Origin: a virus
Length of the DNA: 18,863 nucleotides
Reading direction: 5' to 3' (one strand)
UHGV virus genome: UHGV-0268673
Shown here: positions 11,295 through 15,447 of the stretch, piece by piece
How positions within the stretch are numbered: position 1 is the stretch's first letter
Layout of the letters: each line of letters opens with the position of its first letter
Made by a program: the position numbers and the translations under genes
The notes under the pieces: generated by a model
The model's input: only the letters and a program-made list of their open reading frames with translations
Database searches by the model: none
What the model was told of the DNA's origin: nothing

Positions 11295-11320
11295 ATCTCC
11301 TCCTCATGTAAACACATGGT

Positions 11321-11335
11321 TTACCTTTAAGGTAA
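11321..11335 (-). promoter_or_regulatory. Operator-like palindrome O1 (TTACCT-TTA-AGGTAA) overlapping the -10/+1 region of the promoter for the 69-aa/membrane-protein operon
   Basis: Perfect 6-bp inverted repeat with 3-bp spacer. On the minus strand the order is -35 TTGCAG, 17-nt spacer, -10 TACTAT, operator. One of three copies of the same palindrome in the island. Confidence 0.5.
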
Positions 11336-11406
11336 TAGTACGCTATTCACCCCCAGTCTGCAATCTGTACAGAATTATTTAAAGGCACGTCCCTGTGCCG
11401 CCGCCG

Positions 11407-12102
11407 TCAGAAGAACCCTGCTTTGTCGTTGATGTACTCCGCGTGCGTCTGGATATCACGCAGGCATTTGCTCACACCGACGATGTAGCAGAACATGGTG
11501 GTCAACTCCGCCGCCGCGCCCGATACGTCATGCCCGTCTTCCTGTAACTGGTTCAGCAGATTCATCAGCAGTGAGTTCTCCGTCAGGCCGAGAACACCAG
11601 ACGGAGAATGAATCAGGCTGCGGTAGCCTGGCTTCAGTGGGGCGCTGTAGGTTTTGTTCTCTATCTTCATCGCCTGCATCACTGCTGATGCTGTGGCGTT
11701 TGCAACCTGGTCGGCAACCATCTTTATGCGTTCTTCCTGCGGGAGCGAGTTTTTAATGTAACTTCCGGTGCGGCGGATCTGAGGAAGAACCTCACCTGTA
11801 ACCCATTTACGAAAGCGGTAGGGGATAGTGCCTGGTGTCACTGCGTCGCGGCAGCGGAGGATCAGTGTGTAGAGGCCTGACTCGGAGATGATGATCGATT
11901 CTTGCTCACCGCCAGGGGTGTCGGTTGAAGCGACGCCCTTCTCATCATCATCAAGTTTTCGAACAGCATCTCGATGGTTTGCTATGCCTATAGCCCGACA
12001 AACATCTGAAGCGATAAACCATGGCTCACCATTAATGACGATTACCCGTATATCGGCTTGGGATTCGAAAGAAAAAATGGACGTGCTTTTTGTAGCTGTC
12101 AT
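11407..12102 (-). CDS. Phage anti-repressor-like protein with an N-terminal Bro-N domain (231 aa)
   Basis: N-terminal region IRVIVINGEPWFIASDVCRAIGI…DEKGV…GGEQESIIISESGLYTLILRCRDA…FRKWVTGEVLPQIRRTGSY matches the Bro-N/AntA-type pattern. AAGGTAA Shine-Dalgarno upstream of the ATG at 12102. C-terminal ~65 aa is paralogous to the 85-aa protein at 12418..12675. Confidence 0.8.
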   Translation of the reverse strand: MTATKSTSIFSFESQADIRVIVINGEPWFIASDVCRAIGIANHRDAVRKLDDDEKGVASTDTPGGEQESIIISESGLYTLILRCRDAVTPGTIPYRFRKWVTGEVLPQIRRTGSYIKNSLPQEERIKMVADQVANATASAVMQAMKIENKTYSAPLKPGYRSLIHSPSGVLGLTENSLLMNLLNQLQEDGHDVSGAAAELTTMFCYIVGVSKCLRDIQTHAEYINDKAGFF

Positions 12103-12259
12103 AGTGGTTACCTTTTAGTCTGGTTAATCACCACTACCGACGCCAATCGGTTGGTGGTGAACTGTGCAGGGTTGGCGTAACCGGCTAAAAGGACCCGGCG
12201 CACCTTTCGGTGCCCCCACACAGCCCACCATAATACGAATGTGGCCGTGCTATACGCAT

Positions 12260-12279
12260 AAAAAAACCGCTTGCGCGGT
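12260..12279 (-). terminator. Rho-independent terminator on the minus strand, between the 85-aa gene and the anti-repressor-like gene
   Basis: Minus-strand read: ACCGC-GCAA-GCGGT hairpin (GNRA-like loop) followed by six T (plus-strand A-run 12260-12265). Confidence 0.5.
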
Positions 12280-12371
12280 GAATGCGCCTTTTAGTAATCC
12301 GGGACGCCAATCCCGGCACTGGATTTTGCCAGTGCCCGATTACTATGGCACAAGAGGAGTGCGATGTAAAT

Positions 12372-12386
12372 TTACCTCAAAGGTAA
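12372..12386 (-). promoter_or_regulatory. Operator-like palindrome O2 (TTACCT-CAA-AGGTAA, extended ATTTACCT…AGGTAAAT) with associated promoter-like elements
   Basis: Minus strand shows -35 TTGCAA (plus 12409-12414), 16-17-nt spacer, -10 TTATAT/TATATT, then the operator at the putative +1. Same architecture as P1/O1. Confidence 0.5.
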
Positions 12387-12417
12387 ATATAAGCACTCCA
12401 CTTGGTAATTGCAAACC

Positions 12418-12675
12418 TTATCTGGTTTGTTTTCGTAATTGTTCGGCACAATAGTCGAGATGTGTTTGCAGATCCTGCATAGACATCTGTGAGCTGGTGA
12501 CGTAGTTAATCAGTGCAGTCAGTTCGGCAAGTGGGCCATCGACATTAAATCCATCCTTATCGAGATCCCGGAGTAATTTCATCAAGTGCGATCCCTCCAC
12601 CAGTGACCTGACGCCTCCCGGCGTGTGAATCCTTTCGGTAAATCCGTCTTCCAGTGGATAGTGATACTGCTGCAT
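12418..12675 (-). CDS. Small protein (85 aa from the ATG at 12675) homologous to the C-terminal domain of the adjacent Bro-N anti-repressor-like protein; candidate SOS-inducible anti-repressor-type regulator
   Basis: The ORF track starts at TTG 12693; the ATG at 12675 has a GGAGA Shine-Dalgarno 7 nt upstream. Roughly 40-45% identity by eye over about 64 aa to residues ~165-228 of the 231-aa protein (e.g. LMKLLRDLDKDGFNVDGPLAELTAL vs LMNLLNQLQEDGHDVSGAAAELTTM). LexA box and O3 lie upstream. Confidence 0.65.
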   Translation of the reverse strand: MQQYHYPLEDGFTERIHTPGGVRSLVEGSHLMKLLRDLDKDGFNVDGPLAELTALINYVTSSQMSMQDLQTHLDYCAEQLRKQTR

Positions 12676-12694
12676 CTTATCTTCTCCATGCAAT

Positions 12695-12714
12695 AACTGT
12701 ATATTTATACAGTA
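12695..12714. promoter_or_regulatory. LexA (SOS) box: AACTGTATATTTATACAGTA
   Basis: CTGT-N8-ACAG with an AT-rich spacer, about 18/20 match to the E. coli LexA consensus TACTGTATATATATACAGTA. Lies between the promoter region and the ribosome-binding site of the 85-aa gene and overlaps a TATAAAT -10-like element on the minus strand. Confidence 0.6.
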
Positions 12715-12751
12715 TCAAATAATTTGTTTGCTATCCAGCACGTTTTGCAAA

Positions 12752-12766
12752 TTACCTGAAAGGTAA
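12752..12766. promoter_or_regulatory. Operator-like palindrome O3 (TTACCT-GAA-AGGTAA, extended ATTACCT…AGGTAAT), flanked by the self-complementary TTGCAA hexamer
   Basis: Third copy of the palindrome, in the divergent intergenic region between the 85-aa gene (minus) and the tailspike gene (plus). Could serve a promoter in either direction. An extra AGGTAAT half-site lies at 12811-12817. Confidence 0.5.
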
Positions 12767-12870
12767 TATCTATTCGTATTTACAGCCTTTCTATCCATAT
12801 GTGGTTTTTCAGGTAATAAAATAACCAGATATGCGGCGCAACGGGTGCTGCGACTATCTGGAGATTTAAC

Positions 12871-15447
12871 ATGACGGTCTCAACCGAAGTTGACCACAAC
12901 GAATACACTGGTAACGGCGTTACGACATCATTTCCGTATACCTTCCGTATTTTCAAAAAATCCGACCTGGTTGTTCAGGTGTCTGACCTTAACGGTAACG
13001 TAACAGAACTAGTACTGGATACCGGTTATACGGTAACTGGGGCGGGCACTTATAGTGGCGGTTCTGTTGTTCTTCCGTCGCCGCTTGCTGCTGGATGGCG
13101 AATTACGATAGATCGTGTGCTTGATGTAGTGCAGGAGACAGACCTTCGCAATCAGGGAAAATTTTTCCCCGAAGTGCATGAAGATGCCTTTGACTACCTG
13201 ACGATGCTGATCCAGCAATGTTTTGGGTGGTTCAGACGTGCATTGATGAAACCATCTTTGCTTGCAAAATATTACGATGCAAAGCAAAACAGAATTTCTA
13301 ACCTTGCAGATCCATCATTTGAGCAGGACGCTGTAAATAATCGCTCAATGCGTAATTATGTTGATGCTGCAATCGCCGGGGTTGTTGGTGGTTTTGGTTG
13401 GTTTATTCAGTATGGTTCTGGAGCAGTATACCGAACGTTCCAGGATAAGATGAGAGATATCGTCAGTGTTAGCGATTTTGGTGCAAAGGGAGATGGAATA
13501 ACTGATTCTACGGAGGCGTTCTCTAATGCAGGCCACAGAGCGTTTGTTCCTAATGGCGATTTTGCAGTAAATACTCTCGAAGTTGATGTATCTTCTGTTC
13601 AAGGTATTGGGAGGATTGTTGCTGATAATGGATCTCTTATTTCAGTTTCTCGTCTACTTGAAACTGACAAACTTGTGCAGAGAAAAATGATGGAACCTTT
13701 TTTTGGTTTTCAGGGAGAAACAAACACAGAAATTTATCCTAATGCCAGAAATGCGTTACAGGGGATCGCATATTGCCGTGTTAATGGCATTGAAAAACTA
13801 TTTGTCACACAACGGCCTGTTGGGCCAACCTGGTCAGATAAAGAAAGAGTTCGTATTGTTGAGTTTAATCTTTATGATGATGGAAGGGTAGTAAACCATG
13901 TTGCGTATTCTCCAGAATTAAACCTTGGGCACGGATTTGATCTTTCTGCCATGGTGGAGAATGGTCAAGTATATTTATATACATCAAGTGTAACCAATTC
14001 AGGTGAAGATGGGGAGTCTGCAGGCAAAGGGTTTAGTAAAATAACTTGGCGAGGGGCAGGAACAACTCAGTCTGACGTAAAAAGTTATAATGTATGGGGG
14101 ATTACTGGTAGCGGTCACCCATTTCAAGATTACAATCGTGCAGGAATTGCCATTTCTTCTGACGGTCGTCTTTTAATAATGGTTAATACACCAAAGAGTG
14201 ATGCCGCTAAACGAACTGTATTTATATACGATAAAATATCAATTGATAAACTTGAAGATAAAACATTAGCAAACCCCATGTTTGTTTGGGAAATGAGCGA
14301 CTCACCTTCTGAAGGCGCTTACTCTGTACAAGGTATTGCGTCTGATGGAAGATATATACATATACTTAAGGGAGGGACTAACGCTTTTGGAAAGCATCAT
14401 ATCTTTACATATGATTTAACAGGTAATTTACTAAGAAAATTAGATATCGATGATGCAAGGTCGCAATATGGGCGCGATGGGTTGCTTAACCATCCAACTC
14501 TTGGGAATCCAGCCAGATTTGAGCCGGAAGGTCTAACTATTCGTGGTGAAGAAATAATTATAAGCTGCATAGAAACATGGAGGGCAGGAGCTAATATTGT
14601 AAACTGGCGTGGAAGAAGATGGGCTGCATCATCCATTGAGACTTCTGGAATAATTGGTGTCCCTCCATCAAATGGCTCTTATTGGGTAGAAACAACCAAG
14701 GATGCAAATTCTGGAGATTGGAGTCCTGAAACAGATTATGGATGGGGAAGTAGCTATTCTCTTGAGAAAAAGACAATTTACTCTATACGACCAGCGACTG
14801 GTAACAACGATGAGCAGAACCTTAATTCTGGCATAACCAATGCTTCAAGTAATGCAGGTGCAGATGCCGGAGAAAGCGGGCGAAATATATCATTTAGATG
14901 GCGCAATGCTTTTAATATTGTTGCATTTAGCGAACGTCTTGGTGAGTACTTCAAAGCTATTATGTATGATAATAGCTCAAGATTAAGAATATACGATCAG
15001 CAAAACGGTAGTGATAACACTGTTTATGGCTCAATCCAGGCACTATTTACGTCATCATTTAAGGGATTGATTTTAAGGGGTAGGGGGGTATCAGCATCAA
15101 ATAGTTCCTATATTAGGTTACATTCATCTGATGATCCAAACTACCCAAATTCGATCATTGAAGGAACAAGAACAGATGGAAGTTTTTCCAGGGAAACAGA
15201 TTCAAACGGAACCACTACATTTGCATCGGACTCAGAGCACGAACCGTTGCGTATCAGAAGGGCTTCAGATGGTTTGTTGTTTGCATACGAGAAAGTAAGA
15301 GGTACAACTCTCTTTGGAATTTATAGAGGCTCCGGTTCACCTGAGGGTGTTGTGACCGCACCTCAGGGGTCAATGTACATTGATTATAATGGTGATTGGT
15401 ATCAAAAGAAAACAGGAACAGGAAATACAGGATGGGTGTTAAAATAG
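12871..15447 (+). CDS. Tailspike/tail fibre protein (858 aa) with T7 gp17-like N-terminal virion-attachment domain and a large C-terminal receptor-binding/enzymatic region
   Basis: GGAG Shine-Dalgarno 7 nt upstream. The N-terminal ~120 aa (…YTGNGVTTSFPYTFRIFKKSDLVVQV…ITIDRVLDVVQETDLRNQGKFFPEVHEDAFDYLTMLIQQ) follows the conserved pattern of the T7 tail-fibre N-terminal domain. Long Gly/Ser/Thr/Asn-rich remainder is typical of tailspikes. Confidence 0.85.
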   Translation: MTVSTEVDHNEYTGNGVTTSFPYTFRIFKKSDLVVQVSDLNGNVTELVLDTGYTVTGAGTYSGGSVVLPSPLAAGWRITIDRVLDVVQETDLRNQGKFFPEVHEDAFDYLTMLIQQCFGWFRRALMKPSLLAKYYDAKQNRISNLADPSFEQDAVNNRSMRNYVDAAIAGVVGGFGWFIQYGSGAVYRTFQDKMRDIVSVSDFGAKGDGITDSTEAFSNAGHRAFVPNGDFAVNTLEVDVSSVQGIGRIVADNGSLISVSRLLETDKLVQRKMMEPFFGFQGETNTEIYPNARNALQGIAYCRVNGIEKLFVTQRPVGPTWSDKERVRIVEFNLYDDGRVVNHVAYSPELNLGHGFDLSAMVENGQVYLYTSSVTNSGEDGESAGKGFSKITWRGAGTTQSDVKSYNVWGITGSGHPFQDYNRAGIAISSDGRLLIMVNTPKSDAAKRTVFIYDKISIDKLEDKTLANPMFVWEMSDSPSEGAYSVQGIASDGRYIHILKGGTNAFGKHHIFTYDLTGNLLRKLDIDDARSQYGRDGLLNHPTLGNPARFEPEGLTIRGEEIIISCIETWRAGANIVNWRGRRWAASSIETSGIIGVPPSNGSYWVETTKDANSGDWSPETDYGWGSSYSLEKKTIYSIRPATGNNDEQNLNSGITNASSNAGADAGESGRNISFRWRNAFNIVAFSERLGEYFKAIMYDNSSRLRIYDQQNGSDNTVYGSIQALFTSSFKGLILRGRGVSASNSSYIRLHSSDDPNYPNSIIEGTRTDGSFSRETDSNGTTTFASDSEHEPLRIRRASDGLLFAYEKVRGTTLFGIYRGSGSPEGVVTAPQGSMYIDYNGDWYQKKTGTGNTGWVLK

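Follow-up and report, generated by a model that had tools for sequence, protein, structure and literature searches.

A probable C4-type antisense RNA cassette with an IsrK-like leader ahead of the antirepressor gene of a Uetakevirus-type Escherichia coli phage

The window analyzed here is a stretch of 18,863 nucleotides from the virus genome UHGV-0268673, and its minus strand contains a gap of about 300 bp between an ORF of 91 amino acids (12693-12418) and an ORF for an antirepressor of 231 amino acids (12102-11407). What occupies this gap is the question addressed here. A first-pass annotation had placed a structured RNA element plus a terminator at 12260-12400, which it took for a possible small RNA or for a leader controlling read-through into the antirepressor gene. 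Across the cassette region the window is 97-99% identical to the Escherichia phages vB_EcoP_ZX5, phiV10, and TL-2011b, and it is thus from an epsilon15/phiV10-like Uetakevirus phage of E. coli; in the phiV10 record, the sole feature annotated at this locus is a "putative rho-independent terminator". Read along the minus strand, the gap holds a palindrome, a promoter-like site, two hairpins, an unpaired A-rich linker, and a terminator hairpin followed by six U residues. We conclude that the flagged stretch is very probably a promoter, an IsrK RNA (an a1b1 leader), and a terminator, which together make up the 5' portion of a P1-type C4 antisense-RNA cassette; that this cassette gates the translation of a Bro-N antirepressor, and that its terminator is leaky, we likewise hold to be probable.

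All the sequence elements named in the earlier annotation were located on the minus strand where it had placed them: AGTAATC at 12344-12338 and its partner GATTACT at 12299-12293, CACTGG...CCAGTG at 12335-12316, CCGGGA...TCCCGG at 12315-12300, and the terminator ACCGC-GCAA-GCGGT at 12279-12266 with its T6 tract at 12265-12260, which was recovered by a terminator scan. The 96-nt stretch also folds as had been described, with a minimum free energy (MFE) of -43.7 kcal/mol compared with -27.7 +/- 3.4 kcal/mol for dinucleotide shuffles (z = -4.79), and none of 200 shuffles was equally stable. A scan for tRNA and tmRNA found neither. An Rfam scan of the whole window at curated thresholds gave exactly two matches, isrK and C4, which are adjacent and both lie on the ant strand.

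The isrK match (RF01394; 12260-12335, minus strand) scores 77.9 bits against a cut-off of 50 (E = 1.6e-15) over the full length of the model, positions 1-77, and the element therefore belongs to this family by score. Its 76 nt, counted from the inferred start to the terminator, also show in silico the family trait of a promoter of its own at model position 1 together with an intrinsic terminator, which would give an RNA of ~77 nt. The earlier proposal of a small RNA was thus right in that a terminated small RNA is encoded, but its length is ~76 nt rather than about 100 nt. The C4 match (RF01695; 12150-12235, minus strand) reaches 77.7 bits against a cut-off of 45 (E = 5e-14, positions 1-87), again sufficient for membership. 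A permissive scan added RF03163, c4-a1b1, at 12348-12296, with 45.1 bits (E = 5.7e-10), which misses the cut-off of 46.7 by 1.6 bits; close relatives score 46-51 bits. This model overlaps the first 40 nt of isrK, and its first 13 unpaired positions correspond to the -10 box and discriminator. The trait that defines it, a1 and b1 boxes complementary to a neighboring C4, is present as exact 7-nt and 8-nt complements. The element is accordingly a member of isrK and C4 by curated scores and a borderline member of c4-a1b1.

Homologues were gathered in two steps. Eighteen BLAST-derived loci came from E. coli Stx and lambdoid phages, Klebsiella, Enterobacter, Hafnia, Actinobacillus, and the phage APSE-7, to which P1 was added; the set was then enlarged to 117 distinct units by scanning IMG/VR with a pattern taken from the invariant part of IsrK. 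The pattern fixes the hairpin 1 loop and the 5' arm of hairpin 2, and variation there cannot appear. Structure was assessed on a MAFFT alignment of 63 sequences less than 93% identical; because that alignment is gappy in the linker and terminator, the terminator, the helix bracketing it, and the b boxes were analyzed per sequence with cross-unit controls. In all 18 BLAST-derived loci and in P1, isrK lies directly 5' of C4, the P1 isrK being sub-threshold at 35.1 bits. Among complete E. coli genomes, 941 of 5426 contain a related element, under which RefSeq annotates the BRO-N gene and nothing else.

The promoter scan placed a sigma-70 promoter for the IsrK/C4/ant transcript at 12342-12370 on the minus strand, with a -35 hexamer TTTACA (12370-12365), a 17-nt spacer, and an extended -10 element TGcCATAGT whose hexamer CATAGT lies at 12347-12342, and transcription would start near G12335. 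The A at position 2 and the T at position 6 of the -10 hexamer are invariant among the 63 aligned homologues; in the larger set, the motif nAnnnT ends 6 nt upstream of the IsrK +1 in 106 of the 117 units, and 80 of the 117 match TTGACA in at least five of six -35 positions. The -10 box of the annotated P1 promoter P1c4 (P51b) falls on the same positions of the Rfam c4-a1b1 model as CATAGT. Abutting the -35 hexamer is a 17-bp operator-like palindrome, O2 (TTTACCTTTGAGGTAAA; 12371-12387). The motif TTACCTTTNAGGTAA occurs seven times when both strands are counted together and up to two mismatches are allowed, against an expectation of 0.14, and the right half of O2 is kept together with the -35 hexamer in Uetakevirus-type homologues (L004, L007, L008, and L009).

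The two hairpins and the terminator are likewise not peculiar to this phage. Hairpin 1 (GCACUGG/CCAGUGC; 12335-12316) is paired in 98% of the alignment cells of the 63 homologues, with compensatory changes at six of its seven pairs, and hairpin 2 (CGGGA/UCCCG; 12315-12300) in 93%; the latter shows no covariation, which is uninformative because the search pattern fixed its 5' arm. The intrinsic terminator, ACCGC-GCAA-GCGGU followed by U6 (12260-12279), has a hairpin of -7.5 kcal/mol. A run of at least five T residues with an abutting hairpin is present in 97 of 117 units, which use 59 distinct hairpin sequences and would end their RNAs between +74 and +85, apart from one at +91. The terminator is a feature of the family. 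In read-through RNA, a further helix, CGCAU (12286-12282) with AUGCG (12259-12255), is predicted to bracket the terminator (12255-12286 overall). Such a helix of at least 5 bp can be drawn in 72% of 71 distinct units compared with 25% of cross-unit controls, and 33 different best-match strings occur among those 71.

A search for exact complementarity between C4 and its flanks found six boxes that connect the two RNAs with the antirepressor gene. C4 has an MFE fold of -45.6 kcal/mol that reproduces the model structure, with a closing stem, two hairpins, and a single-stranded bulge, and by homology to the annotated P1 c4 the mature RNA is predicted to be 77 nt (12229-12153). Its hairpin loop contains b' (CCUUUUAG; 12192-12185), complementary to both b1 and b2, and its bulge contains a' (ACGCCAA; 12178-12172), complementary to both a1 and a2. 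Within IsrK, a1 (UUGGCGU; 12304-12310) lies in the hairpin 2 loop, where P1 has its annotated a1 site, and is the exact complement of a' and identical to a2; b1 (CUAAAAGG; 12287-12294) is the exact complement of the b' loop and identical to b2 and lies in the linker 7 nt upstream of the terminator hairpin, and the MFE structure of an RNA that begins at the start site leaves it unpaired. On the far side of C4, a2 (12140-12146) begins 4 nt past the end of the C4 model, and b2 (12111-12118) spans the Shine-Dalgarno sequence AAGG, 8 nt upstream of the ant ATG; all six boxes are read on the minus strand. The trait of RF01695, a' and b' complementary to a2 and b2 downstream with b2 over the ribosome-binding site, is thus present. 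The C4 RNA, which lies outside the coordinates of the first-pass annotation, was missed there, as were the a and b recognition sites. RNAcofold and duplexfold of whole C4 with either IsrK or the ant leader gave a gain of 0 to -1.8 kcal/mol, figures in which pseudoknot-like loop-loop contacts are unmodelled, and for this reason we relied on exact complementarity and co-variation.

The box sequences vary between loci yet stay mutually complementary. APSE uses UUCGCAU/AUGCGAA and CUAAACAGG/CCUGUUUAG, and P1 uses UUGACAG/CUGUCAA and GUUAGUG/CACUAAC. In 97 of the 117 distinct units, a1 is identical to a2 and to the reverse complement of a', and these 97 comprise 19 classes of a box and 56 different b2 strings. 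A match of at least 7 nt between b' and b2 was found in 78 of the 97 units, compared with 56 of 1961 controls in which the b' region of one unit was set against the leader of another. As far as sequence comparison can speak, this co-variation marks the boxes as a recognition code under selection, and it is the strongest in-silico support for the view that C4 would pair with the IsrK domain as well as with the leader of ant.

The gene that these boxes precede, ant (11407-12102, minus strand), encodes a 231-amino-acid antirepressor with a Bro-N domain (Pfam, E = 2.3e-21) and a C-terminal antirepressor domain, and it matches the PHROG anti-repressor Ant with E = 3.7e-63. The earlier statement that no convincing ORF covers the gap was correct in the relevant sense. 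Short minus-strand ORFs of 44 (12319-12185), 35 (12231-12124), and 37 (12221-12108) amino acids exist, and none has a Pfam match, nor do the latter two have an NCBIfam match. The 35-residue ORF starts at the conserved AUG at the 5' end of C4 and thereby corresponds in position to orf45 of Gifsy-1. Its AUG at 12231 has no obvious Shine-Dalgarno sequence in front of it, and the ORF ends 21 nt upstream of the ant ATG. Its frame, the sole one compared across homologues, closes after 3 to more than 64 codons in 85 units, often inside the b' loop, and 22 of the 85 stop by codon 17; this ORF is probably not a gene here. A coding explanation of the gap was therefore dropped, as the short ORFs are without family matches and the length of the C4-AUG frame is not conserved.

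The cassette lies directly downstream of a small-antirepressor gene with a LexA box, and the terminator scan found no terminator between the two antirepressor genes. The small antirepressor is paralogous to the C-terminal domain of the Bro-N antirepressor. Its GenBank product name and the sequence of the LexA box suggest that the upstream gene is a LexA-controlled Ant.

An experimental precedent is the Salmonella prophage Gifsy-1, in which transcription from the isrK promoter yields a short RNA that ends at the terminator as well as an mRNA that reads through it (Hershko-Shalev et al. 2016, PMC4825925). These two isoforms lend support to the earlier suggestion that the element is the leader of an antirepressor transcript with read-through. 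In Gifsy-1, the read-through mRNA is translationally silent, short IsrK supplied in trans raises anrP translation more than 100-fold, and a stable RNA downstream of IsrK is produced by processing (PMC4825925). Our Rfam matches in Gifsy-1 place isrK at 34316-34240 (79.3 bits) and C4 at 34214-34131, after which come a2, b2, and anrP, and the C4 match covers the published orf45/STnc1160. The compensatory pairs G28A/C162U and G31A/C159U were validated experimentally (Table 1D, PMC4825925). Counting from the published +1, G28 and G31 fall within a1, and C159 and C162 fall within a'; the Gifsy-1 compensatory pairs are therefore a1:a' base pairs.

Going by P1 and Gifsy-1, the following course of events is proposed for the window phage. 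Transcription from the conserved sigma-70 promoter that abuts the operator-like palindrome would start near G12335, and where it stopped at 12279-12260 it would yield an RNA of ~76 nt carrying a1 in the loop of hairpin 2 and b1 in the single-stranded linker. Termination would be incomplete, as in Gifsy-1, and transcripts that read through would contain the C4 RNA (12235-12150), which in P1 is excised as a 77-nt species and would probably be processed likewise here. On the P1 model, b' and a' of C4 would pair with b2 and a2 ahead of ant and occlude the ribosome-binding site; since b2 covers the Shine-Dalgarno sequence, we propose that C4 pairing blocks ant translation. The complementarity between C4 and the ant leader is exact, and its repressive effect is expected by analogy with P1. 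Because the IsrK domain has the same two boxes as the ant leader, we propose that it imitates the C4 target. If a1/b1 paired with a'/b', whether inside one read-through RNA (in cis) or by way of the short RNA (in trans), the amount of C4 available for a2 and b2 would shift, and the balance between termination and read-through at 12260 would set the possible amount of antirepressor, the direction of the effect being taken from Gifsy-1.

Some observations count against this explanation. The precedents of P1 and Gifsy-1 are not fully reconciled, the P1 a1 and b1 sites having been called merely "putative" targets. The cis mutation G28A in a1 of Gifsy-1 raised basal translation, and a simple decoy model predicts otherwise. 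Activation in Gifsy-1 was explained by coupled translation of orf45 and anrP, and the equivalent ORF is unconserved here. Lastly, the c4-a1b1 score is slightly below the Rfam cut-off.

Two alternatives keep the same parts and differ in how these would act. A possible but less likely one is an autogenous attenuator that follows the logic of P4 CI and seqA/seqC: mature C4 would pair with a1/b1 on the nascent leader and mainly change termination or processing at the IsrK terminator, which would set the levels of C4 and ant mRNA with no trans-acting IsrK. Two features would suit such a device: b1 ends only 7 nt upstream of the terminator hairpin, and in read-through RNA the terminator is enclosed by a helix that covaries. 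In Gifsy-1, moreover, a transcriptional fusion to anrP rose 8-fold when IsrK was supplied in trans, and a P4-like role for the downstream RNA STnc1160 was raised by the authors of that study (PMC4825925). Against this, co-expressed STnc1160 did not act as a termination factor in Gifsy-1 (PMC4825925), and the translational effect there, of more than 100-fold, is far above the transcriptional one. The attenuator is in any case compatible with a C4 block of ant translation, and the two are not exclusive. The exact Gifsy-1 mechanism, in which short IsrK opens the read-through mRNA, the orf45-like ORF (12231-12124) is translated, and ant is thereby turned on, we regard as unlikely in the window phage. 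The orf45 AUG (+107) is indeed the conserved AUG at the C4 5' end that is present at 12231, and stop-codon mutants of orf45 reduced activation in Gifsy-1 (PMC4825925). However, the ORF here stops short of the ant ATG without overlapping it, its frame is unconserved and without an obvious Shine-Dalgarno sequence, as set out above, and the AUG would be lost through an RNase P cut of the P1 type, which is predicted to fall between 12230 and 12229.

The remaining alternatives concern the nature of the RNA itself. The first-pass annotation had the outer stem AGUAAUC/GAUUACU enclose both hairpins in a three-way junction, and the element could then be a stand-alone structured sensor or antiterminator. 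The junction is indeed the MFE structure once the upstream 15 nt are included, and its outer stem persists in close Uetakevirus relatives, where one of the pairs is G-U; the junction could also form in transcripts from promoters further upstream, as the terminator scan found no minus-strand terminator between 12418 and 12345. Nevertheless, the two segments of the outer stem are paired in only 50% and 44% of cells across the 63 homologues, a background level, compared with the 93-98% of the inner hairpins, and the Rfam consensus structures of isrK and c4-a1b1 are without it. The 5' arm of the outer stem overlaps the -10 hexamer and the untranscribed discriminator and therefore lies mostly upstream of the inferred start at ~12335, and b1 has its first two bases within the 3' arm. 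Conservation of the stems thus holds for the inner hairpins and fails for the outer one. We read the three-way junction as a coincidence confined to this lineage, or at most as something that longer transcripts from upstream would form, and as an explanation of the element it is very improbable. More improbable still, to the point that we give it hardly any credence, is a sar-like cis-antisense RNA made from the plus strand across the ant leader. In P22, the secondary immunity region immI makes the small RNA sar, which restricts the synthesis of antirepressor. It is antisense in cis: its template is the opposite strand, and it is fully complementary to its target. The comparison with sar made in the earlier annotation stands as a loose functional analogy, but both Rfam matches are on the minus strand, the strand of ant, and the RNAs of the window are co-directional with ant, the regulatory complementarity being confined to two boxes of 7-8 nt between RNAs of the same strand. 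On the plus strand there is only a weak terminator-like site at 12273-12287, and a scan of 11300-13100 found no plus-strand promoter. A C4 cassette with an IsrK leader remains our preferred reading.

The element is real, well formed, and ordinary. It is already known: isrK, C4, and BRO-N are annotated, with a' and b', in the APSE-7 record, and related sequence is present in the E. coli genomes counted above. What the analysis provides is that an "empty" 300-bp gap in a common type of E. coli prophage consists of two known regulatory RNAs and their target sites, and that annotation can be corrected where public phage records call the C4 region a "hypothetical protein" or an "Ash family protein" (the ZX5 record so labels an ORF across C4). 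It also links two literatures that are rarely joined, in that the "structure A" pairs of Gifsy-1 IsrK are the a1:a' contact of P1 c4. For the biology of this phage, it would place a second antirepressor under RNA-based immunity beside the LexA-controlled one, which involves no new type of mechanism. A tentative and rather unlikely idea is that IsrK is an RNA dedicated to imitating the C4 target and that, in this phage, it is coupled to the SOS response. If it were true, SOS transcripts would enter the IsrK domain and mostly stop at its terminator, producing an excess of a1/b1 copies; these would titrate C4 and so release the second antirepressor, an RNA-level feed-forward from DNA damage to c4-type immunity. 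The 19 a-classes and ~56 b-variants would then constitute a combinatorial address code that decides which antirepressors silence or unlock one another among co-resident prophages.

Among known systems, the P4 CI RNA with its seqA and seqC sites and the N15 CA RNA that controls antC are processed leader RNAs of their own operons, and each pairs with repeated short sites on both sides of itself and so shuts off downstream genes. The P4 RNA makes transcription of the replication genes end prematurely, whereas C4 would block the translation of an antirepressor. P4, also named in PMC4825925, and N15 are compared here by their described mechanisms. The Hamiltonella phage APSE-7 (LR794149) has isrK, C4, and BRO-N annotated in the same order as in the window, with a' and b' marked and with mutually complementary boxes, but at ~71% nucleotide identity, with other boxes (UUCGCAU and CUAAACAGG), and in another genome context.

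Gifsy-1 shares with the window the order of promoter, IsrK, terminator, C4-family RNA, a2/b2, and antirepressor gene, and its a box is identical (UUGGCGU/ACGCCAA). Its b box is of a UCACCG type rather than CUAAAAGG, and its orf45 overlaps the anrP start (ATGA), unlike the ORF of the window with its 21-nt interval. The window has neither isrJ downstream nor the Q-like antQ upstream, and its phage is a podovirus (Uetakevirus), whereas Gifsy-1 is a lambdoid siphovirus.

The immI region of P1 and P7, as described by Citron & Schuster 1990 (cited in PMC8201110), comprises the c4 antisense RNA, the a1/b1 and a2/b2 sites, icd, and ant; the P1 GenBank record annotates the promoter P1c4 (P51b), a1, b1, c4, a2, b2, and icd. 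Six boxes, a b2 over the ribosome-binding site of the first downstream gene, a regulated antirepressor, and a -10 box at the matching place (P51b) are common to P1 and the window, and the spacing is close: from the c4 end to a2 there are 4 nt in both, from a2 to b2 29 nt in P1 and 28 nt in the window, and from the start of b2 to the start codon 18 nt and 16 nt, respectively. The box sequences differ with full compensation, and the operator-like site is a palindrome in the window, where P1 has a C1 operator. The window does not have the c4-icd-ant order of a P1-type immI operon, in which ant is expressed only if icd is translated: there is no icd-like ORF, and ant starts 8 nt past b2, which therefore covers the ant ribosome-binding site directly. 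The element of the window works like immI, in a different operon.

Three copies of the palindrome TTACCTTTNAGGTAA lie in the window, at 12752-12766, 12372-12386 and 11321-11335, together with a weaker copy at 12984-12998. Counting both strands and allowing at most two mismatches, the motif matched seven times against 0.14 expected. Each of the three copies is situated a short distance upstream of a minus-strand transcription unit: respectively, the 91-amino-acid ant gene, the IsrK/C4/ant cassette, and a pair of ORFs of 69 and 287 amino acids. This arrangement looks like three successive promoters under the control of one putative repressor.

The first of these units, the 91-amino-acid ORF at 12418-12693(-), is preceded by a perfect LexA box, TACTGTATAAATATACAGT, at 12696-12714(-), and its homologue in Salmonella phage SPC32H carries the product name "ant: anti-repressor protein". 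A terminator scan of the minus strand from this gene to the IsrK promoter found none. The 91-residue protein is homologous to residues 150-223 of the 231-amino-acid Bro-N antirepressor encoded at 11407-12102(-) (42% identity, E = 1e-15), and PHROGs 450 and 15539 are common to both proteins; the phage therefore has two antirepressors that share one C-terminal domain. The gene for the smaller is preceded by the LexA box, and that for the larger by the C4 antisense RNA.

Two further pairings would involve RNA that reads through the IsrK terminator. The helix CGCAU/AUGCG (12282-12286 with 12255-12259, minus strand) brackets the terminator and can form in read-through RNA only. A terminator-bracketing helix of at least 5 bp was present in 72% of 71 units, i.e., distinct homologous isrK-C4 copies, versus 25% in controls in which the pairing segments were taken from different units; the helix appears to covary, with versions such as CGACAA/UUGUCG, CGAUAUG/CAUAUCG and GCUGAC/GUCAGC in homologues. 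The second pairing rests on complementarity between GUGGUGA (12128-12134), situated between boxes a2 and b2 about 15 nt past C4, and UCACCAC (12154-12160), which forms the 3' side of the stem that closes C4, both on the minus strand. This pair also covaries in homologues (e.g., UCGCCACC/GGUGGCGA, CUGCCACC/GGUGGCAG and UCAUCACC/GGUGAUGA), and suggests an alternative fold of the unprocessed read-through RNA. The minimum free energy fold also has GUGGUGA paired with ACCACUA, located at the start codon of ant.

In the homologous loci L002, L005, L006 and L010, public records draw protein CDSs across the C4 and IsrK RNAs. The product is given as "ash family protein" for ZX5 and for Hafnia phage yong2, whose counterparts in phi296 and phi330 are each called a "hypothetical protein". 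Neither of the window's two ORFs over C4 (12108-12231(-)) matched a model in Pfam or NCBIfam, and homologues do not preserve the reading frame that starts at the conserved AUG of C4. Such CDSs probably represent RNA genes annotated in error.

Among related loci, prophage PPyecE_EH1910 (L014) contains one isrK-C4 cassette at 129-317 and a second, ~650 bp away, at 785-973; their a/b boxes differ, being UCGCAG/GUCAACGG in one and UUGGCGU/GUUAUCGG in the other. Phage phi330 (L006) has an Rfam sRNA-Xcc1 match (RF02221, 73.5 bits) at 1508-1591, downstream of an isrK-C4 cassette and flanked by two antirepressor genes.

A mosaic joint is located at ~12395-12417 of the window. TL-2011b has only 12050-12394 in common with the window, i.e., the IsrK/C4/ant cassette including the operator-like palindrome O2, whereas epsilon15, SPN1S and SPC32H have only ~12418-12750, containing the small ant gene. 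Because TL-2011b and the latter three phages share opposite sides of the joint, the RNA cassette behaves as a separately exchangeable module.
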